A stretch of DNA of 53,068 nt from Dehalococcoidales bacterium (GCA_016927955.1 JAFGLR010000025.1:1-53068), one strand, 5' to 3'; counted from the stretch's first letter, positions 14,071 through 53,068 are shown. Notes: generated by a model from the letters alone, not told the origin. Numbers and translations are program-made.

Positions 14071-14093
14071 CCGGAGATAGATAGAGACATTTA

Positions 14094-28076: not shown

Positions 28077-28098
28077 TCAATTTAATATGTAGTAACTT

Positions 28099-28132
28099 AG
28101 AGAAGCCCAAGTTAAATAACTTGGGCTTCTCT
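28099..28132 (+). terminator. Perfect 15-bp stem-loop between the oah-like and dch-like genes (no U-tract)
   Basis: AGAGAAGCCCAAGTT-AAAT-AACTTGGGCTTCTCT. Lies 22 nt after the oah stop and 100 nt before the dch start. Confidence 0.5.
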
Positions 28133-28232
28133 GTATAGGTTAGTGTTAATATTCTATCGCAAATAAGCTTGCATTTCGGGGTTGGATTTCGGTAAAATTC
28201 AGCCGAACCGTTTCAACTATATAGGAGGAAAT

Positions 28233-30549: not shown

Positions 30550-30573
30550 CCCAGCCTGAAATCAGGCTGGGTT
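30548..30573. terminator. Stem-loop between convergent genes (AACCCAGCCTGA..TCAGGCTGGGTT)
   Basis: Near-perfect palindrome overlapping the 30549 stop codon. No clear U-tract on either strand. Confidence 0.45.
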
Positions 30574-30598
30574 AATAAAACATACGGGACGCCTTTAT

Positions 30599-31861: not shown

Positions 31862-31913
31862 GAAAATCTCCTTTATTAAATATAGATTGAATTTCTTATT
31901 GATTTATTAAGAA

Positions 31914-32657
31914 CTAGATATATTGACCGCCATCGACCCTGATAATATCGCCGGTGACATGGCGAGATTTCTCACTGCAGAGAAATGTAACGACATTAGA
32001 TACATCTTCCGGGCTGGCTAGTCTGCCGATCATTGTTTCATCGATAGCTTTCTGTAAAAACTCTTTCGGAATGTTCTTTGCCATATCCGTTTCCACCATA
32101 CCCGGGGCTACGGCATTAACATTGATATTAAATTTACCTAACTCCCTTGCCAGGGTCTTAGTGAAAGCGATAATACCACCTTTCGAAGCGGAGTAGTTAG
32201 ACTGTCCGAATTTGCCGCGCATACCGTTAATAGAAGTAATATTAACGATTTTACCGTAGTTCTTTTCTTTAAAATGGATGGCGGCGGCACGGTTATAATT
32301 AAAATAGCCCTTCAAGTTAATACTGATAACCTCATCCCACTGCTGCTCGGTCATTTTCCAAATGACACTGTCCCGGTTAACACCGGCATTACAGACGAGA
32401 ATATGCAGGTCGCCCCATTCGGCAACCACTTTTTTAATCATATTCTCGGCATCCTGGAAACTGGCGACATCGGCTTGCACCGCCAGTCCTTTGCGGCCGA
32501 CCGCCTCTATCTGCCGGACGATTTCTTTCGCTTCGGTATCATGTTTACGGTAGTTTATGGCAACATTGGCACCTTCTTTAGCCAGAGTAATGGCGATCGC
32601 TGCCCCGATACCCAAACTGGCACCAGTTACGATAGCGTTCTTTCCTTCGAGGTCCAT
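31914..32657 (-). CDS. Short-chain dehydrogenase/reductase (FabG-like 3-oxoacyl/3-hydroxyacyl reductase)
   Basis: TGASLGIGAAIA cofactor motif, NAG, and the YSASKGG catalytic tetrad. ATG at 32657 is preferred (GGAGGAAGGA directly upstream) over 32669. Confidence 0.9.
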   Translation of the reverse strand: MDLEGKNAIVTGASLGIGAAIAITLAKEGANVAINYRKHDTEAKEIVRQIEAVGRKGLAVQADVASFQDAENMIKKVVAEWGDLHILVCNAGVNRDSVIWKMTEQQWDEVISINLKGYFNYNRAAAIHFKEKNYGKIVNITSINGMRGKFGQSNYSASKGGIIAFTKTLARELGKFNINVNAVAPGMVETDMAKNIPKEFLQKAIDETMIGRLASPEDVSNVVTFLCSEKSRHVTGDIIRVDGGQYI

Positions 32658-32941
32658 TCCTTCCTCCATTTCTAATACTATGTTTATTATCTCAGCGTAT
32701 AATTTTATTTTTTAATAAAACCAAAAATCAAGTTATATATCGGAAAGAGAAACTGCTGTATCAGTTAAAATCGCAAATGGCTGTACCCGTTGATTAATAT
32801 AAGAAGCTTATCAATATCCTATCATTCCACGCTCTACCAGTCAATTTATTTTATTATTTTAGGTATAACGGCCAAAAAACCTATTTATAAATATTAACAT
32901 TTAAGGTAAAATAGTAAAAATAATAATTCGAGGAGAGAATA

Positions 32942-33214: not shown

Positions 33215-34294
33215 ATGATTAAAGTAGGTATTCTTGGGGCTACCGGTATGGTAGGTCAAAATTACCTGAGGCTGCTTAATAACCATCCGTGGTTTGAAGT
33301 AGTATATCTGGCCGCTTCACCCAATTCCGCAGGCAAACGCTATAGCGAAGCAGTTGCGGGTCGCTGGCACATGACCACCGACCTCCCCGATAAATATAAA
33401 GATATTATCGTAGAAGACGCGGGCAATGTCGATAAGGCTATCGGCAAATGCCAGCTTGTTTTTTCTGCAGTTGAAATGGATAAGAAAGCCATTTTAGCTA
33501 TTGAAGCCGAATACGCAGCTAAGGGATTTGCCGTCGTATCTAATAACTCAGCCCACCGGGCAACTGAAGACGTGCCGGTGATGGTCCCGGAAATCAATCC
33601 GGGGCATTTGGAGATTATTCCCCAGCAGCAAAAACAGCGCGGCTGGAAAAACGGTTTTCTGGTAGTGAAACCAAACTGCAGTATTCAGAGCTATATGATA
33701 CCACTCTTTGCTCTGATGCAGATGGGCTATGTAATAGATAAAATGATTGTTACTACTTTACAGGCTGTATCCGGAGGAGGATACCCGGGTCCGGCCTCGA
33801 TTGACATGATCGATAATATCGTGCCGTTCATCCCCGGCGAAGAGGAAAAATCAGAGGTTGAGCCGATGAAAGTATTCGGCAAGGTCAGTAATGGTAAAAT
33901 TATACCCGAGTCAAACCTCAGGATTTCCGCCCACTGCAACCGTGTGGCAGTGGTTGACGGGCATACCGCCTGCTGCTCGGTGCAGTTTGCCGGTAAGAAG
34001 CCCGAAGCCGATGAGATTATTGATATTTGGCGTAATTTTACCGCTGAGCCCCAGAAGTTAAAACTGCCTTCGGCTCCAATCCCCGCCATGGTTTATCGGG
34101 ATGAGCCTAACCGACCGCAGCCGCAAAAGGACCGCGATGCCGGTAATGCGATGGCAGTAACCGTCGGACGGCTGAGAAAATGTAACGTCTTTGACTACCG
34201 GTTTATCGGCCTGCACCATAACACCGTCAGAGGCGCTGCCGGAGGTTCCATACTTACCGCAGAACTGCTAAAAGCCAAGGGTTATATTAAATAA
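33215..34294 (+). CDS. asd: Aspartate-semialdehyde dehydrogenase
   Basis: 359 aa. N-terminal VGILGATGMVGQ, active-site KPNCSIQ, and GAAGG near the C-terminus. GGAGG SD. Confidence 0.85.
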   Translation: MIKVGILGATGMVGQNYLRLLNNHPWFEVVYLAASPNSAGKRYSEAVAGRWHMTTDLPDKYKDIIVEDAGNVDKAIGKCQLVFSAVEMDKKAILAIEAEYAAKGFAVVSNNSAHRATEDVPVMVPEINPGHLEIIPQQQKQRGWKNGFLVVKPNCSIQSYMIPLFALMQMGYVIDKMIVTTLQAVSGGGYPGPASIDMIDNIVPFIPGEEEKSEVEPMKVFGKVSNGKIIPESNLRISAHCNRVAVVDGHTACCSVQFAGKKPEADEIIDIWRNFTAEPQKLKLPSAPIPAMVYRDEPNRPQPQKDRDAGNAMAVTVGRLRKCNVFDYRFIGLHHNTVRGAAGGSILTAELLKAKGYIK

Positions 34295-35303: not shown

Positions 35304-36683
35304 TTACAGTCCTTTTATCATATAGGCACCCTTTAATAAATACCCCTCCGAGCCGTAATATTCCCGGGCACCGACGCCGCTTAACACGAGAATGCGGGAC
35401 AGGCCAAATTCCTCGCGGGCAATACGCTCTGCCTCGCTTAATAAAGCTTTGCCGTAGCCTTTGTGCTGGGCCGCCTCCGATTGGGCTGCTTTTAGCGGGA
35501 CTTCAGGGCCGAAAACATGCAACTCGCGAATGACAGCGGTTTTCTCGCCTGAATTCGCGCCGGGTAAAATCTGCCGGGAGTGAATTCTTAATCTCAATAG
35601 TCCGAATAAAGTCTCTTTCTCATCTTCGAAGGAAAGGAATATTTCCTTGCCTTCGGCAGCCTCATAGTCAGTTCTAACCAATTGCGGAGTGCTGATTTGC
35701 CATTTCGCCCGCCGCCGGTGGCCGTATTCCCGGCAACGGATGCAGCGGCATTGTATATTTTGCTCTTTCATTCTTTCACTCACGGGCTGGCGCAGGGTAT
35801 CTTTACAGCCGGCAGTGATGTATTTCGATGGGATATCCCTTAACACCCGGGCAATGCGGACATATTTAGGAACGATGGATTTAATCTTCACCGCCAGATC
35901 AACCATAATAGCTTTATCATAAGGCTGATAACGGCCTTCCTGATACCACCTCTCCAATTCCGTGTGCTCAACAACAGCCGTAGGATAAATTTTCAGGCCG
36001 TCCGGCTGAAACCGGGGGTCGGTAAATACCATTTTAGCCATCGCAAAGTCTTTTTCCGGTGACGAGCCGGGCAAGCCGGGCATGAGGTGATAATAGACCT
36101 TGAAACCATAATTACGCAGACGGGCGGTTGCCTCGACTACATCGGCTACGGTATGGCCCCGCCGGACCAATTTATAAATTTCATCGTCGGGAGCCTGTAC
36201 CCCCAGTTCGACACGGGTTGCGCCCCATTCCAGCATCCGTTCGACTTCCGCCTGACCGCACCAGTCCGGTCTCGTTTCAATACAGAGTCCGGTACAGCGA
36301 TTTTTAGCCGTCTCGTTAATCGTTTGGGCTTCAGCTAAAGAAGCAGATACCACACCGTTTAAAGCTTCATAAGTATCTTTAATAAACTGATATTGATAGT
36401 CCACCGGCGCGGCTAAAAAAGTCCCGCCCATTACAATTACCTCGATTTTATCCGTAGGATGCCCCATATCCGCCAGGACACCGACCCGCAACATAACCTG
36501 GCGTTTGACGTCGAATTCGCAAGCGCGGGCGCGGAAAACTGCCGGTGATTCCGGGGTATAACTCTGCGGTGAGTCAGAATAAGTGGGACAGTAAATGCAG
36601 GTGCCCGGGCAGCCCATCGGCTTAGCCATCACAGCAACCGGCGTAACGCCGGAAATAGTGCGGGTTACTTTTTTCAGTGCCAC
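35304..36683 (-). CDS. elp3: Elp3-type radical SAM / GNAT acetyltransferase (tRNA U34 cm5 modification enzyme homologue)
   Basis: 459 aa. N-terminal radical-SAM cluster motif CPGTCIYCP inside PVAVMAKPMGCPGTCIYCPT. A central Cys-rich segment (CRCIRCREYG). C-terminal GNAT motif QHKGYGKALL. This is the architecture of the compact bacterial/archaeal Elp3 (for example Dehalococcoides mccartyi Elp3). Confidence 0.85.
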   Translation of the reverse strand: MALKKVTRTISGVTPVAVMAKPMGCPGTCIYCPTYSDSPQSYTPESPAVFRARACEFDVKRQVMLRVGVLADMGHPTDKIEVIVMGGTFLAAPVDYQYQFIKDTYEALNGVVSASLAEAQTINETAKNRCTGLCIETRPDWCGQAEVERMLEWGATRVELGVQAPDDEIYKLVRRGHTVADVVEATARLRNYGFKVYYHLMPGLPGSSPEKDFAMAKMVFTDPRFQPDGLKIYPTAVVEHTELERWYQEGRYQPYDKAIMVDLAVKIKSIVPKYVRIARVLRDIPSKYITAGCKDTLRQPVSERMKEQNIQCRCIRCREYGHRRRAKWQISTPQLVRTDYEAAEGKEIFLSFEDEKETLFGLLRLRIHSRQILPGANSGEKTAVIRELHVFGPEVPLKAAQSEAAQHKGYGKALLSEAERIAREEFGLSRILVLSGVGAREYYGSEGYLLKGAYMIKGL

Positions 36684-36759: not shown

Positions 36760-37413
36760 TTGACGGAGAACGTTTTCGACCGCATCGCCCCGGGCTGGTA
36801 CGGCTTCCGGCACCACACGATATTCCGTACCGAACTCGAAACGCTGGCAAAAAAATGGCAACCGGGCAAACTTCTGAACATCGGCTGCGCCCACGGGCCG
36901 GATTTTATTCCCTTCAGGGAGCACTTCGAGTTATACGGTATCGACTCTTCGCCGGAGATGCTTCACTACGGGCGAAAATACGCCCGGAAATTCGATTTCG
37001 AACCGTTCTTAGAACTGGCTGATGCAACAAGCCTTCCTTTTCCGGATAATTCATTCGATTACGCAATAGCAGTAGCAACCTATCATCATCTGGAAGATAA
37101 AACAGCGAGGCTGAAGGCATTGAGGGAACTAAACCGGGTGCTGAAACCGGACGGCGAAGCATTCATCACGGTCTGGAACCACTGGCAACCGCGATTCTGG
37201 TTCAAGGGTTCGGATACCCTGGTGCCCTGGCGGATTAAAGAACAAGTAGTGCAGCGTTATTATCATCTATTCTCTTACGGAGAAATGGCAAAACTGGTAA
37301 AACAGGCCGGGTTACAGGTGATAAAATTATCTCCGGAAAGCTCGCACCGCTGTCCTATAAAATATTTTTCCCGGAATATATGCCTGCTGGTTAAAAAAAT
37401 ATCTAATAAATAG
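36760..37413 (+). CDS. Class I SAM-dependent methyltransferase, Trm9-like
   Basis: 217 aa. Blocks align by eye with yeast Trm9: VFDRIAPGWYGFRH (VYNEIAPHFSQTRY), LLNIGCAHG (motif I), SFDYAIAVATYHHL (FDFAISIAVVHHW), VLKPDGEAFITVWN, DTLVPW (DVFVPW), RYYHLFSYGEM (RFYHLYREGEL). TTG start with GAGGT 6 nt upstream. Confidence 0.65.
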   Translation: MTENVFDRIAPGWYGFRHHTIFRTELETLAKKWQPGKLLNIGCAHGPDFIPFREHFELYGIDSSPEMLHYGRKYARKFDFEPFLELADATSLPFPDNSFDYAIAVATYHHLEDKTARLKALRELNRVLKPDGEAFITVWNHWQPRFWFKGSDTLVPWRIKEQVVQRYYHLFSYGEMAKLVKQAGLQVIKLSPESSHRCPIKYFSRNICLLVKKISNK

Positions 37414-37620: not shown

Positions 37621-37712
37621 CAGCAAGTCAATTCATCAAACAGAAAACTAGTCCAGGTGCCAAAACCCCATTAGTTAAGCTATAATGAAACTTACTTACT
37701 TGAGGTGAACCC

Positions 37713-38870
37713 ATGGATACTAATGAGTTAAAACAGACGATTATCAGTGATATCGAGGCAAGGAGCAAAGAGCTCAGCGAGCTGTGTTTGAAAATACACG
37801 CTAATCCTGAACTCGGAATGCATGAAGAAAAGGCTGCCGCGTGGCTGACGAAATATCTGGAAACAAACGGCTTTAAAGTAGAGCGGGGCATCTGTGATAT
37901 GCCCACCGCCTTCCGGGCGGTCTACGGAAAAGACAGGCCTGCCGTTGCCTTTCTGGCGGAATACGACGCCCTGCCGGAGGTCGGTCATGCCTGCGGTCAT
38001 AATATTATCGCAACATCGGCCGTCGGGGCGGGAGTGGCGGCAAAAATTGTTGCAGATAATTTCCCGGGCACGATACAGGTCATTGGAACGCCGGCTGAGG
38101 AATTAATCGGCGGGAAAATCGAAATGGCCAACAAAGCCGCATTTAACGATTTGGACGCAGCAATGCTGGTCCATCCCGGAATGCGGGACACGGCAACATC
38201 CAACGCACTGGCCTGTATCACACTGGATGTCGAGTTTTTCGGGAAATCGGCACATGCTGCGGCAGAACCGGAACTCGGCCGGAACGCATTAGAAGCGATG
38301 ATATTGGCTTTTAATGCAATAGACGCTTTAAGACAACACATCAAACCTGTTTCTCGTATCCACGGTATTATTACGAACGGCGGGTCGGCTGCCAACGTAG
38401 TACCGGAGCACAGTGCCGGCTCCTTCCTGGTCCGCGCCGAGGAAGATACTTACTTAGATGAACTGAAACAGCGGGTCCTGGACTGTTTTATCGGAGCGGC
38501 CATGGCTACCGGAACCCGTCTGGAACACCGTTGGAGCCACCATTACGCTCCGATGCGTAATAATAATGCCTTGGCCAATATTTTTCTGGAAAATATGACC
38601 GCTCTAGGACGAAACGTGCGCCCGGAGGGAGATAAAGCGATAGGCAGCACGGATATGGGTAACGTCAGTCAGGTAGTGCCGGCAATTCATCCGTTTGTCG
38701 CGATAGCTCCGCTTAATACTGCTTCTCATTCACCGGAATTCGCTGCAGCCGCCGCTTCCGAAATAGGTATAAAAGGCATGCTGGACGCCGCAAAAACAAT
38801 GGCTATGACGGCAGCCGATTTACTATCAAATCCCAAATTAATGGATCAAATCAAAGTCGAGTTCAAATAA
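37713..38870 (+). CDS. M20-family metallohydrolase (amidohydrolase/peptidase M20D-like)
   Basis: 385 aa. The ELGMHEEKAA...AEYDALPEVGHACGHN...GTPAEE motifs are typical of M20 amidohydrolases. Confidence 0.85.
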   Translation: MDTNELKQTIISDIEARSKELSELCLKIHANPELGMHEEKAAAWLTKYLETNGFKVERGICDMPTAFRAVYGKDRPAVAFLAEYDALPEVGHACGHNIIATSAVGAGVAAKIVADNFPGTIQVIGTPAEELIGGKIEMANKAAFNDLDAAMLVHPGMRDTATSNALACITLDVEFFGKSAHAAAEPELGRNALEAMILAFNAIDALRQHIKPVSRIHGIITNGGSAANVVPEHSAGSFLVRAEEDTYLDELKQRVLDCFIGAAMATGTRLEHRWSHHYAPMRNNNALANIFLENMTALGRNVRPEGDKAIGSTDMGNVSQVVPAIHPFVAIAPLNTASHSPEFAAAAASEIGIKGMLDAAKTMAMTAADLLSNPKLMDQIKVEFK

Positions 38871-38872: not shown

Positions 38873-39859
38873 ATGGCTACAATAGGCATTCCGCGAGCTT
38901 TAGCTTATTATCAATACTACCCGATGTGGCGGACTTTCTTCGAAAAGCTCGGCTCAGAAGTCGTCACTTCGCCGCCGACCACACAGAAAATGCTGGCGGA
39001 CGGAGCAGGCAGAGTTGTCGCTGATACCTGCCTGCCGGCGAAAGTCTATCTGGGACACGTTATTTCACTGGCAGACAAATGCGATTACATGTTTATTCCC
39101 GTTATCCGCAGCGTGAAACGAAAAGCATATAATTGTGCCAAATTTCTCGGCCTGCCGGATATGACCCGGGCGGTCGTACCTGAATGTCCGCCGATTCTAG
39201 AAATCGATTTCGATGTCAATAAAGGTGCGAATACTATATACAAATTAATTTATGAGATAGCTAAGCCTTTCTCCAAAAATAAAAGCCATGTTAAGCAGGC
39301 TGCGATGAGTGCATGGGAAACTCATCTTCATTACCGCCAGCTAATGGTAAATGAGAAACTCACCCCTCCTCAGGCACTAGGTCTGCTGTACGAAAATGAA
39401 AGGCCCGATTTAACGGAGGATAACCGGGTAACTATCGGACTTATCGGACACCACTACCTGCTCTACGATGAACTGGTGAACCAACGGCTAATACCGCGCT
39501 TAAAAACCGCCGGGTGCCGTATTGTTACTCCGGAAATGGCCGATGCGGAAAAGCTCGAAGCGGCGACTCAACGACTCGCAAAACGGCCTTATTGGACATG
39601 GGAAGAAGAAGTCATCGGCGCGGGAGGCTATTACCTGGAAAATGAAAATGTAGATGGGATTATCGGGGTGGCCGCCTTCGGCTGCGGGCCTGACTCGTTA
39701 ATGATGGACTCAGTACACCGCGAGGCAACCAGGTTAAGAAACACTCCTTTTATGAATCTTACATTAGAAGAGCATACCGCCGAGGCAGGGATAATCACCC
39801 GGTTGGAGGCTTTCCTGGACATGATTTTCCGCAAACAGCGGAGGTTAACATGCGCGTAA
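38873..39859 (+). CDS. BCR/HAD-superfamily subunit, DUF2229 / acyl-CoA dehydratase activase-related type (subunit 1)
   Basis: 328 aa. N-terminus IGIPRALAYYQYYPMWRTFFEKLG, DTCLPAKV, AAFGCGPD. I recognise these from the C-terminal halves of the large CoA-substrate-specific enzyme activase proteins. 2-nt gap after the M20 gene. Confidence 0.7.
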   Translation: MATIGIPRALAYYQYYPMWRTFFEKLGSEVVTSPPTTQKMLADGAGRVVADTCLPAKVYLGHVISLADKCDYMFIPVIRSVKRKAYNCAKFLGLPDMTRAVVPECPPILEIDFDVNKGANTIYKLIYEIAKPFSKNKSHVKQAAMSAWETHLHYRQLMVNEKLTPPQALGLLYENERPDLTEDNRVTIGLIGHHYLLYDELVNQRLIPRLKTAGCRIVTPEMADAEKLEAATQRLAKRPYWTWEEEVIGAGGYYLENENVDGIIGVAAFGCGPDSLMMDSVHREATRLRNTPFMNLTLEEHTAEAGIITRLEAFLDMIFRKQRRLTCA

Positions 39860-40938
39860 CTATACCTCAAATGGGCAATTTGTATATCCCTGTGACAACC
39901 CTGTTTCGGGAATTGAATGTGGATATGGTTATGCCGCCGATGAACAGTCAGCGCACGATGTCCTTAGGCACTAAGTATTCTCCGGAAGGATTATGCATAC
40001 CTTTTAAGTTGACGCTGGGAAACTTCATCGAAGCGGCAGAGCTTGGGGCAGATACTTTTATAATGGCGAGCGGTTACAACACTTGCCGCCTGGGCATTTA
40101 CGCTAAAACCCAGGAGAAAATTTTACAGAATCTGGGTTACCAGATGGAAATGATAGAAATGGGCGTGTCCGAAAAGAAGTTTGCCGGCTTTTTGAAAATG
40201 GTTAAAAGGCTCGCGAATAACGCTCCCTGGCAGAGAATCTTCCAGGCTTTCCGTTTCGGTATCGCCAAGATGGATATCACGGACAAAATAGAGCGGGAAA
40301 TGCAGAGTATCCGGGCACGCGAAGCGGTAAAAGGCACCGCCTTCCGGACTTATAATAATGCTCTTAAAGCTATTGATGAAGCTGATAGTATGAGAAAACT
40401 AAAAATGCTTAAAAAAGACTATCTCGAACAGCTGGGGCAGATACCCTTAAACGGAAATAAACAACCGCTGAAAGTATGTATTGTCGGTGAATTCTACGTG
40501 GTCTTAGAGCCCTTCTCCAATCTGGACGTGGAAAATGAACTGGGAAAGCTGGGCGTGGAAGTAACCCGCAGCCTGTATATCTCCGAATGGCTGAAATTCG
40601 GGCTGTTTTTCGGGGTGCTGAAGAAATTCCGCAAGGACAAGAACGCGATATTACACGAGGCGGCAATGCCTTATCTTAAACGCGACATCGGCGGCGAAGG
40701 CTGGGAGACGGTGGGACATAAAGTGCTCGGCGGAGAGCATTACGAAGGGCTGGTGCATTTAGCTCCTTTCACATGTATGCCGGAAATTGTCGCTCAAAAT
40801 ATTATGTCGTCTACTAAAGAAAACATTCCGGTATTGACCCTTTTCTGTGACGAGCAGATGGGCAAACCGGGGATGCTTACGCGAGTGGAAGCCTTCGTCG
40901 ATTTGTTGAAAAGACGGCGCGAAAAGTATAACAATTAA
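39850..40938 (+). CDS. BCR/HAD-superfamily subunit, HgdAB/DUF2229-like (subunit 2)
   Basis: 362 aa. N-terminus VTIPQMGNLYIPV..., EGLCIPFKLTLGN, NTCRLG, APFTCMPE. 10-nt overlap with subunit 1. Confidence 0.7.
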   Translation: MRVTIPQMGNLYIPVTTLFRELNVDMVMPPMNSQRTMSLGTKYSPEGLCIPFKLTLGNFIEAAELGADTFIMASGYNTCRLGIYAKTQEKILQNLGYQMEMIEMGVSEKKFAGFLKMVKRLANNAPWQRIFQAFRFGIAKMDITDKIEREMQSIRAREAVKGTAFRTYNNALKAIDEADSMRKLKMLKKDYLEQLGQIPLNGNKQPLKVCIVGEFYVVLEPFSNLDVENELGKLGVEVTRSLYISEWLKFGLFFGVLKKFRKDKNAILHEAAMPYLKRDIGGEGWETVGHKVLGGEHYEGLVHLAPFTCMPEIVAQNIMSSTKENIPVLTLFCDEQMGKPGMLTRVEAFVDLLKRRREKYNN

Positions 40939-40957
40939 TTTGAATTCAAGGGGAGCT

Positions 40958-41923
40958 ATGGAAGCATATTTAGGTATTGATGTAGGTTCGGTTACAACAA
41001 AGTTTGCCGCTCTGGACCGTGATGATAAGCTACTGGCTCATCTGTATTTGCCGACACAGGGTAAGCCAATCGAAACCGTGCAGGGCGGGCTGAAAAAAAT
41101 CCGGCAAGAGCTCTCTCCTGACACGGAAATCTGCGGTGCGGCAACTACCGGCAGCGCCCGATATTTAGCGGGTGTGATAGTTGGGGCCGACCTGGTTAAG
41201 AACGAGATTACCAGTCATGCCGTTGCCACACTACACTATTATCCTGACGTACAAACGGTTATTGAAATCGGCGGGCAGGACAGCAAGATCATTATCATCC
41301 GTGATGAAATAGTTACGGATTTCGGTATGAATACAGTTTGTGCCGCCGGCACCGGCAGTTTCCTCGACCACCAGGCACAGCGGCTTAATTTGAGTATTCA
41401 GGAATTCAGCGAACGTGCCCTGACTAGTAAAACTCCGGTACGGATTGCCGGACGGTGTACTGTCTTCGGCGAATCGGATATGATTCACAAGCAGCAAATG
41501 GGACACCGTATCGAGGATATTATATACGGACTATGTCAGGCACTGGTACGGAACTACTTGAACAACGTCGGATTAGGTAAAGAAATCAAACCGCCAGTGG
41601 TATTTCAGGGTGGGGTCGCCTTCAATAAAGGCATTATCAAGGCCTTCCGCGAAGAACTCAAGACCGATTTGATTGTCCCCGAACATCACGAAGTAATGGG
41701 AGCCATCGGGGCGGCATTACTGGTACATGAGGAAATAACGCAATCGAAAAATAAAAGTACGTTTAAGGGGTTCGGCATCAGCGATGTTCAATACCAGACC
41801 TCATCGTTCGAATGCAAGTCCTGCCCTAACCTATGCGAAATCGCCCAATTATCAGTTAAAAATAAGGTACTGGCGAGGTGGGGAGGCCGGTGCGATTTAT
41901 GGGAAAGAACTACCGGTGAATGA
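40958..41923 (+). CDS. BadF/BadG/BcrA/BcrD-type ATPase (HgdC-like activator) with a Cys-rich C-terminal tail
   Basis: Actin-fold phosphate-1 motif LGIDVGSVTTK. Cluster-ligand contexts VCAAGTGSFLD and RCTVFGESD. GGVAFN. C-terminal FECKSCPNLCE...GRCDLWE. ATG at 40958 is preferred (GGGGAG SD) over the track's TTG at 40940. Confidence 0.85.
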   Translation: MEAYLGIDVGSVTTKFAALDRDDKLLAHLYLPTQGKPIETVQGGLKKIRQELSPDTEICGAATTGSARYLAGVIVGADLVKNEITSHAVATLHYYPDVQTVIEIGGQDSKIIIIRDEIVTDFGMNTVCAAGTGSFLDHQAQRLNLSIQEFSERALTSKTPVRIAGRCTVFGESDMIHKQQMGHRIEDIIYGLCQALVRNYLNNVGLGKEIKPPVVFQGGVAFNKGIIKAFREELKTDLIVPEHHEVMGAIGAALLVHEEITQSKNKSTFKGFGISDVQYQTSSFECKSCPNLCEIAQLSVKNKVLARWGGRCDLWERTTGE

Positions 41924-42058: not shown

Positions 42059-43054
42059 ATGATTATTGCTGTTGATGCTGCTGGCGGAGATTTTGCTCCC
42101 TGGGAAGTAGTCAAGGGAGCAATTAAAGCCGCCCAAGAATTCGGTGTGGGAATTGCCCTAGTGGGCAGTGGAGAGATACTCCACGTGCTTGCGGGGAAAT
42201 ACCTGAAAAAGCTACCTATCACCTTTGTGGAGGCCAGCCAGGTCATTGGATTTAATGAGCATGCTATTCAGGCAATACAGACGAAGCCGGATTCAAGTAT
42301 TGTGGTGGGTATTAACCTGTTAAAACAGGGCAAAGTAGATGCTTTCGTTTCCGCCGGTCATTCGGGAGCGGTCTTTGCCGCCGGAATGTTTATTCTGGGC
42401 AAGATTGAAGGTACACCGCGCCCGGCCATAGGTTGTTTTATCAATTTGGACCCGAGCAAACTGGCTTTCCTTATCGACGCCGGGGCTAACGTGGAGTGCC
42501 GGCCGGAACATCTGGTCTGGTTTGCTCATATGGGCAGCCTCTATTTAAGCCAGATTTACGGTATTGAGTCTCCGCGTGTCGGTTTGCTCAGTAACGGAGC
42601 GGAAGATACCAAAGGTGATAAGCTGGTAATCGAAACTAATCACTTATTAAAAAATACCAAGTTAAATTTTATCGGCAATATCGAGGGACACGACATCATG
42701 CAAGGAACGGCAGAAGTAATAGTAACCGACGGATTCACCGGTAACATTGTTCTTAAGACCGTCGAGGGTATATACGATAACTGGTTATCTTCCATGAAAG
42801 AAGCCAACCAGAGAGTGGCGAAAGCTTACCGCCAATCGGTAAAAACGCTCAATCGCGATACTGATATAGGTTCGTGGACGAAAAAACTGGACTTCCGTGA
42901 GTATGGCGGGGCGTGCTTGCTGGGTATTAACGGTAATGTAATCATCTCACACGGACGCAGCCAGGCTACGGCGATTAAAAACGCTATCGGACTGGCGATA
43001 AGGACCGCCGAACGGTCGGTACCACAAAAAATTAAGGAGGAAAATAATGACTAA
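42059..43054 (+). CDS. plsX: Phosphate acyltransferase PlsX
   Basis: 331 aa. IAVDAAGGDFAP at the N-terminus and GFTGNIVLKT are both hallmark PlsX motifs. Confidence 0.9.
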   Translation: MIIAVDAAGGDFAPWEVVKGAIKAAQEFGVGIALVGSGEILHVLAGKYLKKLPITFVEASQVIGFNEHAIQAIQTKPDSSIVVGINLLKQGKVDAFVSAGHSGAVFAAGMFILGKIEGTPRPAIGCFINLDPSKLAFLIDAGANVECRPEHLVWFAHMGSLYLSQIYGIESPRVGLLSNGAEDTKGDKLVIETNHLLKNTKLNFIGNIEGHDIMQGTAEVIVTDGFTGNIVLKTVEGIYDNWLSSMKEANQRVAKAYRQSVKTLNRDTDIGSWTKKLDFREYGGACLLGINGNVIISHGRSQATAIKNAIGLAIRTAERSVPQKIKEENND

Positions 43055-43373
43055 ACCTTTCGATGTGACTGAAGCTAACTTCGATAAAGAAGTGATAAAA
43101 TCCAAAATACCGGTGCTGGTGGATTTCTGGGCACCCTGGTGCCGTCCCTGTCTGATGACCGCACCGATTCTTGATGAACTGGCCGTAGAATATAAGGATA
43201 AGCTGACTTTTACCAAGATGAATGTCGATGAGAATGGAGAAGTAGCCAGACAATATGGCGTTATGTCAATCCCGAATCTTATTGTTTTCAAAGACGGCAA
43301 ACCGGCCGCCCAGGTGGTTGGTTTTAAACCGAAAGCCGAATTGAAACATACACTGGATGGAGTAATTGGATAA
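43047..43373 (+). CDS. trxA: Thioredoxin with a WCRPC active site
   Basis: 108 aa. VLVDFWAPWCRPCLM...YGVMSIPNLIVFKDG. 8-nt overlap with plsX. AAGGAGG SD inside the plsX 3' end. Confidence 0.9.
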   Translation: MTKPFDVTEANFDKEVIKSKIPVLVDFWAPWCRPCLMTAPILDELAVEYKDKLTFTKMNVDENGEVARQYGVMSIPNLIVFKDGKPAAQVVGFKPKAELKHTLDGVIG

Positions 43374-43698
43374 AACAGTTTCAGTAACGATTATTTTCGA
43401 TAGTAAAAAAGTGCAATGTGAAGGCCAATGCGGCTTTGACTGGTCGTCGCCCGAATCAGTTGAGACAGTCAAGAAGCGGGTAACGGAACGTTTTGGTAAG
43501 ACGGTTATGCTGGAATTAGTGGATTTGTCCGCAGCCGGTAAGCTGAATACAGACTGGCAAAACCGTGTAGAAAAAGAAAACCTGAATCTACCCTTACTTC
43601 TGGTAAATAACGAAATCAGGATACCGGGGGAATTCGATGTCCGTCAGATGATGGACGCTATCGAAGTGGAGCTTGAGATAGATGGAACAGCAATATGA
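43366..43698 (+). CDS. Small thioredoxin-fold-like protein, YuzD (DUF1462)-like
   Basis: 110 aa. CEGQC near the N-terminus. LPLLLVNNEIRIPGEFDV resembles the PLVLVEDKIVGEG segment of YuzD as I recall it. TTG start overlapping the trxA stop by 8 nt. Confidence 0.5.
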   Translation: MDKTVSVTIIFDSKKVQCEGQCGFDWSSPESVETVKKRVTERFGKTVMLELVDLSAAGKLNTDWQNRVEKENLNLPLLLVNNEIRIPGEFDVRQMMDAIEVELEIDGTAI

Positions 43699-44623: not shown

Positions 44624-45139
44624 ATGGAAAGTAAGATACTGGTAGCGTATGGTTCTAAATACGGAGCTACGGCAGGAATCGCTCAGAAAATCGGGGAGAC
44701 TCTGCAACAGGAAGGTCTTAAGGTAGATATATTATCTGCAAAAAAAGTCACCGATATCAGCTCATATAAAGCGGTAGTTCTGGGCAGCGCGGCTTATATG
44801 TTCCAATGGCGTAAAGAAGTCGTAAAACTATTGCAGGATAAGGAAAACCAATTAGCGGAAAAGCCGGTATGGCTTTTTACCAGCGGTCCTCTAGAAGAAG
44901 GCGACCCCGTTAAACTGCTGGAAGGTAAAATTATTCCGAAGGCATTACAACCTGTACTTGACCGCATCAAGCCACGCGGCATTACCGTTTTCGGCGGTGC
45001 TATCGACCTGAATAAAGTGAATTTTTTTGAAAGATTTATTTTTAAGAGAGTGAAAGCATCCTCAGGCGATTTCCGTAACTGGGATACTATAACAACCTGG
45101 GCAAAAAGTATTGCAAACACGCTCAAGAATCCCGCTTAA
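44624..45139 (+). CDS. Flavodoxin-domain protein (HemG/Flavodoxin_5-like)
   Basis: 171 aa. The ILVAYGSKYGATAGIAQKI FMN-loop-like N-terminus and overall size are as in the flavodoxin-like HemG family. GAGGAGG SD. Confidence 0.7.
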   Translation: MESKILVAYGSKYGATAGIAQKIGETLQQEGLKVDILSAKKVTDISSYKAVVLGSAAYMFQWRKEVVKLLQDKENQLAEKPVWLFTSGPLEEGDPVKLLEGKIIPKALQPVLDRIKPRGITVFGGAIDLNKVNFFERFIFKRVKASSGDFRNWDTITTWAKSIANTLKNPA

Positions 45140-45228: not shown

Positions 45229-45690
45229 ATGAAAGTAATTTTTATCTGTGATGTTACCAATGTGGCAAAAGCCGGAGATATAAAAAACGTACCCGATGGC
45301 TATGCCCGTAATTATCTTTTACCCAAGAAACTGGCAGTGCTGGCTGATTCTAATACGACGGCACAGCGAACCCAAGCGCTGATAAAAGAGCAAAGAGAGG
45401 CTGCTGCCAAACAGGGAGAGATGAACGCCCTGGCTAAAGAAATCGACGGCAAAGAGGTAACCTTGAAAGCCCGTGCCGGTAAAGAAAAACTGTTCGGTTC
45501 GGTTACCAGTGCCGATATTTCCGCCGCTCTGGAGCGTACTTACAGCCTTGTTGTCGATAAGAAGAAAATAGAGTTACCCGAACCGATTCACCAGTTGGGC
45601 AGCTATGAAGTAGTAGTCAAGCTCGGAGCGGATATGAACCCGAAGTTAAAGGTAAACGTAGTGGAGGAGACTGAAAAGAGTGCCGAATGA
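45229..45690 (+). CDS. rplI: 50S ribosomal protein L9
   Basis: 153 aa. The MKVIFI.DV...G..G.I..V.DGYARNYLLPKKLA signature. Confidence 0.92.
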   Translation: MKVIFICDVTNVAKAGDIKNVPDGYARNYLLPKKLAVLADSNTTAQRTQALIKEQREAAAKQGEMNALAKEIDGKEVTLKARAGKEKLFGSVTSADISAALERTYSLVVDKKKIELPEPIHQLGSYEVVVKLGADMNPKLKVNVVEETEKSAE

Positions 45691-47056
45691 GAAGCTACCG
45701 CCTCATGACGTTGATGCGGAAGAAGCGGTTATCGGTTCACTCCTGATAGATGGTACGTCTCTGTATAAAATTACCATTAATTTGCAGCCGGTAGATTTTT
45801 ACAGCGAGCGTAATATGCTTGTATACGAGACCTGCCAGTCTCTTTATCAGCGTAATGAAACGATTAACCAGATAACGGTCGCCCAGGAACTGGCCCGTAA
45901 AGGCCGCCTGGAGACTTGCGGCGGGGCTGCCTACCTCAGTCATCTTATCTCGATATGCCCGACCTCGCTAGATATCGATACGTACGCTCAGATAGTGTTC
46001 CGGCTGGCGGCAATGCGCCGCCTGATAACTGCAGGAGCTCAGATTTCCGATATCGGCTACCAGGCCGACCCGGATGTCGATGGAGCTTTGAGTAAGGCGG
46101 AAGACTTACTGTTCAGAATGCATCACGGTCAGGGGCAGGACTTCCAACCGATACGGTCTATTCTCGATAAGTATTTCGAGCCGGGTACCGAACCTACCGA
46201 GGAAGAAATAGCATCAGGACACCCACACGGTCTTATGACCGGCTTTGCCGGTCTGGACGAACTCTTAGGCGGGTTACAACGTTCCGATTTGATTATTTTG
46301 GCCGCTCGTCCCAGTATGGGGAAAACGAGCCTGGCCCTTAATATTGCCCGTAATATTGCCGTCCAGCAAAAAGGTACCGTTGCCATGTTCAGTCTGGAAA
46401 TGGCTTGTGAACCACTGGTATTGCGTTTACTGTCCAGTGAGGCCGGGGTAGATAGCAAACGCATTCGCCTCGGCGTTCACCAGACGGAAGCGGAAGAAAA
46501 GCAGATAATTGAAGCTACCGGTATACTGTCCGAAGCCCCTATTTTTATTGATGATTCGCCGCGGCAACGCGTGGTCGAAATCAGAAGCAAAGCCCGCCGT
46601 CTCCATTTCGAACGCGGTATTGACTTGCTGATAATCGACCATCTCGGACTTGTTCAGGGTGACGGACGCTGGGAAAACCGTGTTCAGGAAATTAGCTACA
46701 TTTCACGGTCTCTTAAAGCTATTGCCCGCGAATTAAACGTGCCTCTGATTGCCCTGTCACAGCTCAGCCGTGCCTCGGAATGGCGTGCCGTCCACAAACC
46801 GCAGCTTTCCGACCTACGTGACAGCGGCAGTATCGAGCAGGATGCGGATGTAGTAGCTTTTATCTACCGGGATGAATATTATTTCGCTTCCCGCGAGGAA
46901 TGGGAGCGGGAACATCCGGATGAGGCTTATCCGCCGCCGGCGGAAATCATCGTCGCCAAACACCGTAACGGGCCTATCGGAGAAATTAAAGTGCGTTTCC
47001 GCCCTAACCTGGCCAGATTTGAAAATATCGCCACCGAAGAACCGATAACGCAATGA
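45680..47056 (+). CDS. dnaB: Replicative DNA helicase DnaB
   Basis: 458 aa. PPHDVDAEEAVIGSLLID N-terminus, Walker A ARPSMGKTS, IIDHL, SQLSR, KHRNGP. GTG start overlapping rplI. No intein-sized insertion. Confidence 0.92.
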   Translation: MPNEKLPPHDVDAEEAVIGSLLIDGTSLYKITINLQPVDFYSERNMLVYETCQSLYQRNETINQITVAQELARKGRLETCGGAAYLSHLISICPTSLDIDTYAQIVFRLAAMRRLITAGAQISDIGYQADPDVDGALSKAEDLLFRMHHGQGQDFQPIRSILDKYFEPGTEPTEEEIASGHPHGLMTGFAGLDELLGGLQRSDLIILAARPSMGKTSLALNIARNIAVQQKGTVAMFSLEMACEPLVLRLLSSEAGVDSKRIRLGVHQTEAEEKQIIEATGILSEAPIFIDDSPRQRVVEIRSKARRLHFERGIDLLIIDHLGLVQGDGRWENRVQEISYISRSLKAIARELNVPLIALSQLSRASEWRAVHKPQLSDLRDSGSIEQDADVVAFIYRDEYYFASREEWEREHPDEAYPPPAEIIVAKHRNGPIGEIKVRFRPNLARFENIATEEPITQ

Positions 47057-47769
47057 AACAGTTTAACGGCTTTCCCGTTAAAACAAAATATACACCCATA
47101 CCCAATATCTTCTTCAGCTCGGTTTTACCGGAAATATCAGATATTGCTGAGTTAAAGGTAACGTTGCATTTTTGGGAAATATTATATCCTAAAAAAGGTT
47201 ACCCGAAATATGTCAGCCGCAGCAAATTATTAAGTGATATCGCTCTGTTAAGAAGCCTGAAGGGACTTGGGCAAGAACCGGAAGCGGTTTTACAGAAAGC
47301 TCTGAAGTTAGCTGAGGGCCGTGGCACTATACTTCGGATAACTCTGGATAAAGACAGCACGGCAGAAGATATCTATTTGCTGAATACCGAGGCGGATAGA
47401 CAGGCGGCGGCCAAGATTCAAAGTGGTGAGTTAAAATTAACGGGTCTGGAAACCCGAACGGCTCCGGCTAACTTACCGGAGGAACAACCGGACGTTTTCC
47501 GGCTATATGAAGATAATATCGGGATGCTCACCCCGATAGTGGCAGATGAGCTTCGTGAAGCAGAAAAGCTCTACCCGGCAGATTGGATTCGGGATGCCTT
47601 TAAAGAAGCGGTAGTTAATAATAAACGGAACTGGCGGTACATCGCCAGGATACTGGAACGGTGGACAACCGAAGGTAAAAGTGATGGAACACATCGGCGA
47701 TATCTTAAAGAGGACAACGACCCGGACAAATACATCAAAGGGAAATACGGACATATCGTCCGCCGCTGA
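47053..47769 (+). CDS. DnaD-domain replication/primosome protein
   Basis: 238 aa. The C-terminal DnaD/DnaB_2-type domain (YEDNIGMLTPIVADELREAEKLYPADWIRDAFKEAVVNNKRNWRYIARILERW). ATGA overlap with the dnaB stop. Confidence 0.75.
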   Translation: MKQFNGFPVKTKYTPIPNIFFSSVLPEISDIAELKVTLHFWEILYPKKGYPKYVSRSKLLSDIALLRSLKGLGQEPEAVLQKALKLAEGRGTILRITLDKDSTAEDIYLLNTEADRQAAAKIQSGELKLTGLETRTAPANLPEEQPDVFRLYEDNIGMLTPIVADELREAEKLYPADWIRDAFKEAVVNNKRNWRYIARILERWTTEGKSDGTHRRYLKEDNDPDKYIKGKYGHIVRR

Positions 47770-49114
47770 AATAACGGAAAGGACGGGAGAATCATCCTGT
47801 CCCCTTTGTAACGGTTCCGGTTACGTTCATCCGTTGCTGGCCTCGGGCAAGCCGGACTTTAGTCGCGTGGTCGTCTGCCAATGTACCAAAACCAAATTCT
47901 CTAAAGATCGCCAGAGCCGGTTGCAGCGATACAGTAATCTCGGCTCGCTCACCAGCCTGACTTTCGATAGGCTATCTCCGGAAGGCCGCAGTGGTAACCC
48001 GGACAGCCAGCAGCGCTGCCGGGAGGCCTATCAGGAGGCACGACAATTTGCGGCATCACCTGATGGCTGGCTCATCTTCGTCGGACCGCCCGGCAGCGGG
48101 AAAACTCACCTCGCCGCCGCTATAGTCAACGAACGGATTAATAACGGACTACCGGCCTTTTTTATTACGACTCCCGACCTCCTCGACCACCTGCGTTCTG
48201 CTTTCAATCCGAACAGCGAGATGCCCTACGACGAGCTATTTGAGAGGGTCAAGAACTCTCCTCTGCTGATACTCGATGACTTCGGAGTTCAAGCTAGTAC
48301 CCCCTGGGCAAAAGAGAAGCTGGACCAGCTATTGAATCACCGTTTTAATAATGAGCTACCTGCGGTAATCACCACCGCTATCCAGATAGACGATATGGAT
48401 GAAAATATCCGTGCCCGTTTTACCGACCCACAGAAATGCCGGATTCTTATTATCGAAGATAAACGGGCTTTAAGCAATAATTATGACTGGCCGCCGGAGT
48501 TCAAGCTGCAAAAAAGCATGACATTCGAAAACTTCGACTGGCATCGGAGGAACCTCCCTGCCGAGCAGCAGGAAAATCTGGCAGAAGCCTACCGGCTGGC
48601 CTTCGATTTCGCTAAAGAACCGGAGGGCTGGCTGGTCTTTATGGGCGTTACCGGCTGCGGTAAAACTCACCTTGCTTCTGCCATTGTGAACTACCGTTAC
48701 CAGGCTAAACAACCGGGCTTATTTATCGTCGTACCGGAATTTCTCGACCACCTGCGTTCTACATTCGGACCGGATAGCAAAGTATCTTACGACCAGGTTT
48801 TCGAGAGGGTTAAAAAAGCACCCTTACTTGTGCTGGATGATTTCGGGGAACAGTCCACGACACCATGGGCACAGGAAAAACTGTACCAGGTTATTAACTA
48901 TCGTTATAACGCCCGGTCAGCCACTGTCATTACAACACGTTATTCTCTGGACGAAATCATGGAGCGGGTTGAAAGCACTATCAGTTCCCGGCTCAGCGAC
49001 CCGAAAATCAGCACACTTTGGAATATAACCGTACCGGACTATCGAACTACGTTAACCCCTTCCGCTAAGAAAAATGCCCGGCGTAACAGCCGGTCATCCG
49101 GGCGCTGGGATTAG
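47684..49114 (+). CDS. Helicase-loader-like protein with an N-terminal zinc ribbon and two tandem DnaC/DnaI-type AAA+ modules
   Basis: 476 aa. CPLCNGSG...CQC. Module 1 has GPPGSGKTHLAAAI plus LLILDDFG. Module 2 has GVTGCGKTHLASAI plus LLVLDDFG. The only in-frame starts before the zinc ribbon are GTG 47681 and ATG 47684, so it overlaps the DnaD-like gene by 86 nt. Confidence 0.8.
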   Translation: MEHIGDILKRTTTRTNTSKGNTDISSAAEITERTGESSCPLCNGSGYVHPLLASGKPDFSRVVVCQCTKTKFSKDRQSRLQRYSNLGSLTSLTFDRLSPEGRSGNPDSQQRCREAYQEARQFAASPDGWLIFVGPPGSGKTHLAAAIVNERINNGLPAFFITTPDLLDHLRSAFNPNSEMPYDELFERVKNSPLLILDDFGVQASTPWAKEKLDQLLNHRFNNELPAVITTAIQIDDMDENIRARFTDPQKCRILIIEDKRALSNNYDWPPEFKLQKSMTFENFDWHRRNLPAEQQENLAEAYRLAFDFAKEPEGWLVFMGVTGCGKTHLASAIVNYRYQAKQPGLFIVVPEFLDHLRSTFGPDSKVSYDQVFERVKKAPLLVLDDFGEQSTTPWAQEKLYQVINYRYNARSATVITTRYSLDEIMERVESTISSRLSDPKISTLWNITVPDYRTTLTPSAKKNARRNSRSSGRWD

Positions 49115-49178
49115 GGCCATTCAGTCTCAATAACGCAAAACTTGTATCTAATTTGTACTTGGAATAAAATTAAGTTAT

Positions 49179-49700
49179 ATGGGTGTAGACGGTAAGCTTA
49201 CCAATCTACCGGTACTGGTCTTGAACCAGAGTTACGAACCCCTGAATATCTGCCGGGTACGGCGGGCAGTGGTCTTAATCCAGGGCGGTAAAGCTGAACT
49301 GCTGGAAAACGGCGTCGGTTATCTTCACTCGGCCCTGGATTTATTCTCCATACCATCGGTCATCCGCTTATCAGTGATGATAAAGCGGCCCCGGGCAGAG
49401 CGTAGAATGACGCGCTTTGAAATTTTTAACCGCGACCACTATACCTGCCAGTACTGCGGTAAAAAGACCCACCAGCTAACCCTGGACCATGTAATGCCGC
49501 GGCACCGTAAAGGTGAACATACCTGGGAAAATGTCGTCAGTGCCTGTATAGCCTGCAACCGGCATAAAGCGGGACGGACTCCCGAGGAAGCCAATATGAA
49601 ACTGGCACGGAAACCCACCCGGCCGCATAACACCGGAATATTCAATGTTCCATACCAGTTACGTAATAAGACAGAATGGCAAAAATACCTGCTGCAGTAA
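49179..49700 (+). CDS. HNH endonuclease family protein
   Basis: 173 aa. YTCQYCGKK...LTLDHVMPRHRKGEHTWENVVSACIACNRHK is a complete HNH/zinc-finger motif. Confidence 0.85.
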   Translation: MGVDGKLTNLPVLVLNQSYEPLNICRVRRAVVLIQGGKAELLENGVGYLHSALDLFSIPSVIRLSVMIKRPRAERRMTRFEIFNRDHYTCQYCGKKTHQLTLDHVMPRHRKGEHTWENVVSACIACNRHKAGRTPEEANMKLARKPTRPHNTGIFNVPYQLRNKTEWQKYLLQ

Positions 49701-52870: not shown

Positions 52871-53068
52871 AATCATATCCTCTCTAATAACTCAATGTTA
52901 CCAGTGGGCTATTCTTTAGTCAATTTATTGAAGATAATACGCAGATTCAATAATTTATGTTTTAGAATTTCCGACTAATACCCTGTTGTTGTCCAGTGAA
53001 AATGTCACCCTTAATGTTCTGAGAATTTGTCACCCCCCTACTTATCAATAAATATTCTATATTTACTC

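Follow-up and report, generated by a model that had tools for sequence, protein, structure and literature searches.

What reaction is catalysed when two DUF2229 proteins and an HgdC-type ATPase are encoded as three separate, closely packed genes? The question is raised by positions 38873 to 41923 of a contig from a Dehalococcoidales metagenome-assembled genome (JAFGLR010000025.1); the window analysed here is the whole contig, 53,068 bp. An earlier reading of the DNA without database searches (the sequence-only reading) had interpreted the three genes, referred to here as A, B and C, as a disassembled, single-ATPase member of the DUF2229 branch of the benzoyl-CoA reductase/2-hydroxyacyl-CoA dehydratase (BCR/HAD) superfamily. 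This structural interpretation was upheld by the protein folds, by invariant cysteines and by a correspondence with the ether-lipid enzyme PlsA/PlsR. Assignment of the module to the ATP-driven, low-potential Fe-S radical reductases is well supported. The fuller reading, that the A-B-C core is an oxygen-sensitive, ATP-driven Fe-S radical reductase or dehydratase and the split equivalent of PlsA/PlsR and of Ger (glycerol ester reductase), is in our judgement about evenly balanced between being right and being wrong.

Open reading frame (ORF) calling placed the three genes on a common strand, with A at 38873-39859 (328 aa; NCBI locus JW967_02210), B at 39850-40938 (362 aa) and C at 40958-41923 (321 aa). 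A and B overlap by 10 nt, and a GGAGG ribosome-binding site lies ahead of the B start. The mechanical ORF of C opens at TTG 40940; ATG 40958 was chosen as the start because an AGGGGAG ribosome-binding site is found 4 nt upstream of it and because the homologues are 321 aa long. With the B stop at 40938, the gap between B and C is 19 nt. The gene before A, encoding an M20 metallopeptidase, has its TAA stop at 38868-38870 and ends 2 nt before the A start. The sequence-only reading had these coordinates, the overlap, the gap and the M20 spacing right, and every motif it quoted is present. The motifs located in the window were LGIDVGSVTTK, VCAAGTG, RCTVFGESD, CKSCPNLC...GGRC, IGIPRALAYYQYYPMW, VTIPQMGNLYIP, GCGPD and FTCMPE. 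The M20 gene, plsX and a flavodoxin-fold gene were also found where that reading had put them. The module and its two flanking genes are listed below.

37713-38870, plus strand: M20 metallopeptidase, HmrA or Xaa-Arg dipeptidase-like (Pfam, NCBIfam and PDB matches)
38873-39859, plus strand: subunit A, DUF2229 protein, predicted equivalent of PlsA Red1 (Pfam, AlphaFold/Foldseek, BLASTP)
39850-40938, plus strand: subunit B, paralogous DUF2229 protein, predicted equivalent of PlsR (Red2) (Pfam, hhalign, Foldseek, profile)
40958-41923, plus strand: subunit C, HgdC/BcrAD-type ASKHA ATPase ("archerase") (Pfam, NCBIfam and PDB matches)
42059-43054, plus strand: plsX, phosphate acyltransferase, a neighbour only (TIGR00182, 318 bits, cutoff 243)

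Subunits and conserved residues

Both A and B belong to the DUF2229 branch, since both score above the Pfam gathering threshold of that family (PF09989, cutoff 29.4 bits), A with 171.7 bits (E 2e-50) and B with 39.7 bits (E 5e-10). HGD-D (PF06050) reached 23.2 bits at the C-terminus of A, under its Pfam cutoff of 28.4, and had no match in B; NCBIfam gave no model for either protein. The AlphaFold model of A had a predicted local distance difference test score (pLDDT) of 92.8, and its top 17 Foldseek matches (E 1e-8 to 6e-5) were all chains of DCCP, HadBC, BzdNO or MbdON. The same four enzymes accounted for the top 15 matches (down to 6e-4) of the B model, which had a pLDDT of 78.3. The A and B families are paralogous over their full length (hhalign probability 99.3, E 1e-20), and their pairing is the alpha/beta arrangement typical of the BCR/HAD superfamily. 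Sequence searches of the PDB found no match for B and no close relative of A, for which only a marginal match to the C-terminus of DCCP was seen (5e-5 in a search with the A profile).

A has three cysteines, C53, C88 and C271, that stay unchanged across 120 close homologues and across a diverse set of 134 sequences, made up of 133 representatives and the A of the window. K57, H62, Y195 and W241 are likewise invariant in the 134 sequences, D199 is kept in 133 of them, and all eight residues are conserved in PlsA. B has three invariant cysteines of its own (C49, C79 and C309; 120 homologues), which are kept in PlsR. From this conservation, the two sets of cysteines are proposed as candidate [4Fe-4S] cluster ligands. 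The sequence-only reading had held that a lack of conserved Fe-S ligands in these two subunits would argue against a functional radical enzyme, and three invariant cysteines were found in each.

Three further cysteines, A C70, A C327 and B C333 (nt about 39080, 39851 and 40846), are conserved in 118-120 of 120 homologues from the Dehalococcoidia clade and are found neither in other clades nor in PlsA/PlsR. An extra metal site or a disulfide peculiar to this clade is a possible role for them.

C was identified as the ATPase by BcrAD_BadFG in Pfam (154 bits, E 6e-45, cutoff 31.5) and by the NCBIfam model TIGR00241, "acyl-CoA dehydratase activase" (185.5 bits, cutoff 125.4). It matched activators in the PDB from end to end (MbdQ 5e-38, HadI 3e-33, HgdC 2e-31), and its CAAGTG and CTVF cysteine motifs align with those of HgdC, HadI and MbdQ. 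Scores against the benz_CoA_red_A, benz_CoA_red_D and bzdQ models were far under the cutoffs. In the published structures, the cluster ligands of HgdC are the two cysteines equivalent to C128 and C167. Both of these, together with four cysteines of a C-terminal tail (C286, C289, C293 and C312), are kept without exception in the 50 distinct family members compared. The tail has the motif CX2CX3C...C and aligns with the second ATPase domain of PlsA; neither the first ATPase domain of PlsA nor the solved activators (243-276 aa in length) have it. From these alignments, the 4-Cys tail appears to be a hallmark of DUF2229-associated ATPases, which is an observation of our own and not a published family definition. 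The module has the components of the superfamily: an ASKHA ATPase with two conserved cysteines, and two paralogous, cysteine-bearing subunits of the HgdAB/BcrBC fold.

Correspondence with PlsA/PlsR and distribution of the split family

A plsA-plsR reference was found by searching genome contigs with a Clostridium perfringens cloning primer (PMC12838417, Table S6). In the reference locus (L007, Clostridium sp.), plsA-plsR span exactly 4,199 bp, and the size of CPE1194-1195 is 4,199 bp (PMC12838417). The PlsA of this locus contains two BcrAD_BadFG domains and DUF2229, and its PlsR has a weak DUF2229 match. By BLASTP, A aligned over its full length with residues 663-972 of PlsA, the reductase domain Red1 (24% identity over 327 aa, E 2e-22), and B aligned with PlsR, or Red2 (24% identity, E 2e-6). 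C aligned with residues 317-634 of PlsA, the activation domain Act2, through the 4-Cys tail (32% identity, E 5e-51), and matched the first ATPase domain, Act1, at E 7e-33. The A-family profile scored 136-139 bits on PlsA (Red1) versus 16.5 on PlsR; the B-family profile scored 34.5 bits on PlsR and had no reported match to either PlsA sequence. A, B and C thus pair one-to-one with Red1, PlsR and Act2, and therefore the module is a subunit-for-domain split of the Act/Red1/Red2 plan. By these comparisons, A-B-C is the predicted split three-subunit equivalent of the ether-lipid enzymes PlsA/PlsR and Ger.

The likeness to PlsA/PlsR extends to the three cysteines in each reductase unit, to K57, H62, Y195, D199 and W241, to the 4-Cys tail of the ATPase and to independence from conserved accessory genes. 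The differences lie mainly in architecture. Known PlsA/PlsR systems are encoded by two genes in C. perfringens (CPE1194-1195) or by a single plsA gene in Enterococcus, Lactococcus and Bifidobacterium. PlsA runs Act1-Act2-Red1 and is followed by PlsR, whereas the split system is ordered Red1-Red2-Act as three polypeptides. It has one ATPase gene, whose product is presumed to be a homodimer, in contrast to the two fused and diverged ATPase domains of PlsA. The fused plan of two activation domains followed by the reductase ("BBD...", PMC13159169) is therefore not seen here, where there are three genes and one ATPase.

The sequence-only reading took PlsA/PlsR to be the only DUF2229 member with an assigned function, which needs to be amended, as Ger is a second characterised DUF2229 enzyme (PMC13159169). 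Published examples are Tmari_0479 of Thermotoga maritima and SHJ90043 of Desulfatibacillum alkenivorans (PMC13159169). Ger is like the module in its DUF2229 and BcrAD_BadFG content; it is a PlsA homologue, is active only under anaerobic conditions and, with no partner genes, turns sn-1 esters into alkyl ethers (PMC13159169). It differs in being a single fused BBDHDDH protein and not three split genes, and was compared here by its published description. PlsAR and Ger each suffice for ether-lipid synthesis in E. coli (PMC13159169; PMC12838417).

Other members of the superfamily resemble the module in part. HadBC/HadI and HgdAB/HgdC likewise consist of two paralogous Fe-S subunits and a homodimeric activator encoded by a single ATPase gene, and the fold of HadBC (3o3m/3o3n) is like that of A and B (E 4e-8 to 4e-7; template modelling score 0.45-0.59). 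However, HadI and HgdC lack the 4-Cys tail of C, and 2-hydroxyacyl-CoA dehydratases have HGD-D subunits, whereas A is sub-threshold for HGD-D and the module has no conserved CoA-transferase or 2-hydroxyacid context. Class I BCRs (BcrABCD, BzdNOPQ, MbdONPQ) share the superfamily, the fold (8s02, 9g87, 9gai) and, in MbdQ, the best ATPase match; their two different ATPases, HGD-D-type subunits and aromatic-degradation clusters are not seen in the split module. The DCCP/DCCP-R system of Carboxydothermus hydrogenoformans (6eno, 7yyl) gives top fold matches and the best sequence-level PDB match, and it shares a C-terminal TR[LIV]EAF helix motif and a dedicated ATPase reductase. DCCP is a homodimer with six cysteines and an [8Fe-9S] cluster, whereas A and B are two distinct paralogues with three invariant cysteines each, and the module was accordingly rejected as a DCCP.

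The split proteins are widespread. A was scanned against 1.84 billion representatives, which gave 2,775 matches; E was 1e-10 or lower for 1,516 of them and 1e-30 or lower for 471. The best 150 matches nearly all stand alone, with lengths of 300-385 aa, apart from about a dozen A-B fusions of 670-775 aa; no protein in this set is longer than 775 aa or carries a fused ATPase. The expectation of the sequence-only reading that DUF2229 regions would usually be fused into proteins of more than 1000 aa did not hold among these relatives. Apart from a few fragments, the best 150 are 33-48% identical to A. Across phyla, members of the split family share 33-48% identity in A and 54-65% in C. There are thousands of close homologues of A and B, at 60-86% identity, and the named ones are from Dehalococcoidia or Chloroflexota. 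A profile search added Thermincola, Sporotomaculum, Calderihabitans, Desulfitispora, Crassaminicella, Marinisporobacter and many other Clostridia, and cluster look-ups added Thermoanaerobacter (ethanolicus, wiegelii and brockii), Syntrophomonadaceae and Ca. Hakubella. A search of a plasmid collection added one more split cluster, the A-B-C genes of Monoglobus pectinilyticus, along with fused PlsA-type genes at 22-26% identity. As a member of this very large and conserved family, which is spread over Dehalococcoidia and many anaerobic Bacillota, the module is ordinary. Family members are annotated generically as "acyl-CoA dehydratase activase-related protein", and no functional study of the split family was found in the literature searched. 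A selenium-linked HGD-D cluster of Slackia, met in the literature on CoA-substrate-specific enzyme activase, was set aside as unrelated.

The 94 loci in which gene order was examined came from a metagenome scan (80 loci), from contig look-ups and from two annotated records, and ORF calling and BLASTP labelling were our own; loci with an A at least 44% identical were placed in a Dehalococcoidia-like group. B follows A in 22 of 22 Dehalococcoidia-like loci and in 26 of 29 others, and C comes next in 21 of 22 and 23 of 29, respectively. The three genes do co-occur in other genomes, which the sequence-only reading had singled out as bearing on whether the enzyme is functional. M20 lies directly upstream of A in 26 of 32 clade loci and in none of 29 others. 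A-B-C is the universal unit and M20 is a clade-specific operon partner. That reading had also named an M20-A-B-ATPase-plsX neighbourhood for comparison in related genomes; its A-B-C part is near-universal, and its M20 and plsX ends are restricted to the clade.

Variants of the gene order were also seen. An extra B paralogue (A-B'-B-C), 43-54% identical to the B of the window, is present in L001 (8993-11136), L026 and L039. A-B fusions of 690-775 aa followed by C were found in L010 (8001-10073), L045, L046, L058 and L086, and the fused pair of L010 has purD on one side and purB-purC-purS on the other. A-B pairs without an adjacent ATPase gene occur in L054, L060 and L078 and in Thermoanaerobacter (L093, 9001-11063); their activator must be encoded elsewhere or borrowed from a fused PlsA/Ger. 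According to a 2026 survey of Bacillota, all screened genomes, each of which has a PlsA/Ger homologue with activation domains, also carry "additional PlsA homologs" without activation domains, whose role it calls unclear (PMC13274423). The ATPase-less A-B pairs are probably these additional homologues. Thermoanaerobacter, which has a split A-B pair, is one of the screened genera (PMC13274423) and, by its dimethyl-acetal profile, a plasmalogen producer.

Proposed reaction, substrate and alternatives

Quaternary structure, cluster types and the electron path are modelled here on HgdC/HgdAB, HadI/HadBC and class I BCR. Two copies of C presumably dimerise and bridge a [4Fe-4S] cluster through C128 and C167, and this cluster would be reduced by reduced ferredoxin or flavodoxin. 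ATP binding and hydrolysis would lower the cluster potential and push one electron to A/B, possibly relayed by a second cluster on the CX2CX3C...C tail of C. A and B would form an HgdAB-like heterodimer with a [4Fe-4S] cluster on the three cysteines of each subunit. The open iron of one A/B cluster would bind the carbonyl of the substrate and inject the electron, giving a ketyl radical that would start reductive C-O chemistry.

With low confidence, the substrate may be the acyl-ester carbonyl of a membrane glycerolipid, which would be converted to a vinyl or alkyl ether. This guess is made because it is what the only characterised DUF2229 enzymes do and because no conserved partner genes are needed; PlsAR and Ger reduce the sn-1 ester of membrane lipids (PMC13159169; PMC12838417). 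Lipid ester reduction was one of two hypotheses of the sequence-only reading and remains the best guess, although the arguments it drew from plsX and the flavodoxin gene are weak. The neighbourhoods give mild hints of a lipid connection: roughly half of the clade loci have plsX after C, at a distance of only 22 nt in L001; in L008 the end of a CMAS-type methyltransferase gene lies 18 nt ahead of A; and in 2 loci the module is flanked by PLD-type genes.

Several observations weigh against a PlsA/PlsR-Ger equivalent that acts on lipid esters. The split proteins are 24-32% identical to a PlsA/PlsR pair collinear with CPE1194-1195 and form a separate, large family of their own, so function is not transferable by orthology. 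The strong orthology to characterised PlsAR that would, by the sequence-only reading, have removed the novelty of the module was not found. Adjacency of plsX is clade-restricted and incomplete (directly after C in 11 of 21 clade loci and in 0 of 20 outside), and the M20 dipeptidase, tightly coupled as it is, is without an obvious role in lipid ester reduction. Ether lipids of Dehalococcoidia were not documented in the literature searched, where papers naming the two together contain no lipid data on this class. Coexistence of split and fused forms in Bacillota would favour a distinct specificity or function for the split form.

That last point leads to an alternative in which the enzyme class is the same and the substrate is another. 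A-B-C would then be a third functional DUF2229 branch, carrying out a housekeeping reduction or dehydration in strict anaerobes, and candidates include an sn-2 ester, the conversion of vinyl ether to alkyl ether, and a soluble non-CoA carbonyl or small molecule (compare DCCP). Such a branch would suit a family that is large, coherent and distinct from PlsA, that probably coexists in Bacillota with activation-domain-bearing PlsA/Ger homologues and that lies in varied housekeeping contexts (purine genes in L010, spoVA/lysA in Firmicutes, dapF/dapL in Monoglobus). The Bacillota survey names "a yet-unknown enzyme" for the conversion of vinyl ether to alkyl ether (PMC13274423), and the A profile finds its best sequence-level PDB match in DCCP. 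However, there is no positive evidence for any particular alternative substrate, A and B each lack the six cysteines of a double cubane, and the sharing of K57, H62, Y195, D199 and W241 with PlsA suggests related chemistry. We regard this alternative as a real but somewhat doubtful possibility. Another explanation, confined to Dehalococcoidia, is that M20 releases or processes a compound derived from an amino acid or N-acyl-amino acid, which A/B then reduces or dehydrates. M20 and A are translationally coupled in 26 of 32 clade loci, including some in which A identity is as low as about 49%; upstream of M20 the gene content differs between loci, and a promoter-like site precedes M20, all of which is consistent with a functional tie. 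Nevertheless, other lineages keep A, B and C with their active-site residues and without an adjacent M20, so M20 is not needed for the core reaction. Unrelated genes often stay coupled in streamlined genomes, and the closest structures of M20 are dipeptidases of general function. A substrate supplied by M20 is therefore considered improbable.

The second hypothesis of the sequence-only reading was an ATP-dependent acyl-CoA reductase or dehydratase feeding the had and oah genes about 10 kb upstream. Those genes are genuine equivalogs (had, TIGR03201, 463 bits, cutoff 339; oah, TIGR03200, 518 bits, cutoff 464). The dch gene assigned next to them did not stand, as this third crotonase (273 aa) scored 120 bits versus a cutoff of 292.5 for dienoyl-CoA hydratase (dch). 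The three genes lie at 25823-29003. Around them, at 17647-22180 and 29539-32669, are genes for two acyl-CoA dehydrogenases, a D-2-hydroxyacid dehydrogenase, a thiolase and an SDR enzyme, and one that resembles butyryl-CoA:acetate CoA-transferase. The region resembles a lower pathway for benzoyl-CoA or alicyclic acids, and no ring reductase could be recognised on the contig. In favour of the hypothesis, no canonical BCR was found in the window, as the sequence-only reading had stated, and A/B share their fold with BzdNO and HadBC. The had/oah genes are separated from the module by asd, an Elp3 gene and a methyltransferase gene on mixed strands, however, and no had/oah homologue was found within +/-8 kb of the module in any of the 91 other loci. 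HGD-D is under threshold for A, the BCR models are likewise sub-threshold, and one ATPase gene is present versus the two distinct ones of class I BCR. Carriers of the module also include Thermoanaerobacter and Monoglobus, two genera that ferment carbohydrates and do not degrade aromatics. No CoA-transferase, CoA-ligase or acyl-CoA dehydrogenase, and no CoA-activating enzyme in general, was among the 25 commonest flanking Pfam families outside Dehalococcoidia. A role in CoA-ester metabolism is thus not supported and is very improbable.

The split PlsA/PlsR-Ger reading would have consequences for the sources of ether lipids. This enzyme class spends ATP to reach the lowest redox potentials in biology, and its characterised relatives make bacterial ether lipids, which are central to the "lipid divide" debate and to palaeoclimate proxies based on branched glycerol dialkyl glycerol tetraethers (brGDGT). 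We think it rather unlikely, though well worth considering, that in Dehalococcoidia and many anaerobic Bacillota A-B-C serves as the reductase that forms ether lipids or modifies lipids in another new way, or as an enzyme of vinyl-to-alkyl-ether conversion or sn-2 etherification. If so, it would have been overlooked by gene surveys because their queries were full-length fused Ger or PlsA. Search criteria in published Ger surveys were built on the full-length protein, and Chloroflexota are not listed among the Ger-bearing phyla of a Black Sea survey (PMC11868695). Dehalococcoidia, which are dominant in anoxic sediments and euxinic waters, would then be unrecognised sources of sedimentary ether lipids. 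Once the substrate is identified, either Dehalococcoidia and others would join the known makers of ether lipids, or a new radical reaction, ATP-dependent and of a housekeeping kind in strict anaerobes, would come to light. Subunits that can be expressed separately would ease biochemistry compared with fusions of 1,400 aa. The novelty lies in the split family as a whole and not in the locus of the window.

Gene neighbourhoods and other features of the window

M20-A-B-C is a predicted operon, of which A-B-C is the conserved core. Within the Dehalococcoidia-like clade, and only there, the operon probably begins with the M20 gene, whose junction with A is a 4-8 nt overlap or a 2-3 nt gap. A promoter-like site at 37657-37686, upstream of M20, was only weakly indicated. 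The M20 protein matched Peptidase_M20 and M20_dimer in Pfam and TIGR01891 (225 bits), and its closest structures are HmrA (3ram, 2e-73) and the Xaa-Arg dipeptidase 7yh4. With these as its closest structures and with DapE models far under their cutoffs, it was rejected as an N-acetyl-diaminopimelate deacetylase or DapE. Downstream, C and plsX are separated in the window by an AT-rich spacer of 135 nt, compared with only 22 nt in L001, and this spacer probably holds its own promoter. A terminator scan found nothing between C and plsX, its counts being equal to those of shuffled sequence, and Rfam and tRNA scans of the window gave no matches. The proximity of plsX, trx, trxB, L9 and dnaB to the module is lineage synteny.

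Outside the Dehalococcoidia group, the 116 flanking genes scanned matched 140 Pfam families, led by SpoVAF/GerA (6), PALP (4) and ApbE (3), and no metabolic partner recurred among them. The flavodoxin gene of the window (44624-45139) fits Flavodoxin_5 (PF12724, HemG-type, 92 bits) better than Flavodoxin_1 (30 bits), had no NCBIfam match and is present in the closest relatives only (L004/L005). The sequence-only reading had suggested it as the electron donor. As a HemG-type protein that is not conserved beside the module, it was rejected in this dedicated role.

Lysine or diaminopimelate genes lie close to the module in three unrelated lineages (L008/L009; L011, L012, L063, L070 and L092; L094). 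In L008, dapA-dapB-lysA are upstream of the module; spore-forming Firmicutes have the order spoVA...spoVAF-A-B-C-(0-3 genes)-lysA; and Monoglobus has A-B-C-TSCPD-orf-dapF-dapL. In the window, asd (33215-34294) is 4.5 kb upstream and lysA (51554-52876) 10 kb downstream of the module. This proximity to lysine, diaminopimelate or sporulation genes could be inherited housekeeping synteny or a real link.

Several other genes of the window were noted. A bacterial Elp3-type tRNA-modification radical SAM/GNAT enzyme (TIGR01211, 574 bits) is encoded on the minus strand at 35304-36683, divergent from a class I methyltransferase gene on the plus strand at 36760-37413; the pair is also found upstream of M20 in L004/L005. 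A 110-aa ORF with a CEGQC motif at 43366-43698 overlaps both the thioredoxin stop and the trxB start. It has no Pfam match; L004/L005 keep it at this position with 77% identity, and L033 and L039 have a more distant version. At 45680-49700, an unusual replication-loader arrangement consists of dnaB, a DnaD-like gene, a gene whose 477-aa product has two IstB/DnaC-like AAA modules, and a gene for an HNH endonuclease; it is partly kept in relatives (a DnaB_2-domain gene follows dnaB in L001-L004). Finally, an Mrp-type antiporter cluster at 10038-17561 encodes three consecutive MrpD/NuoN-like subunits (491, 496 and 584 aa).

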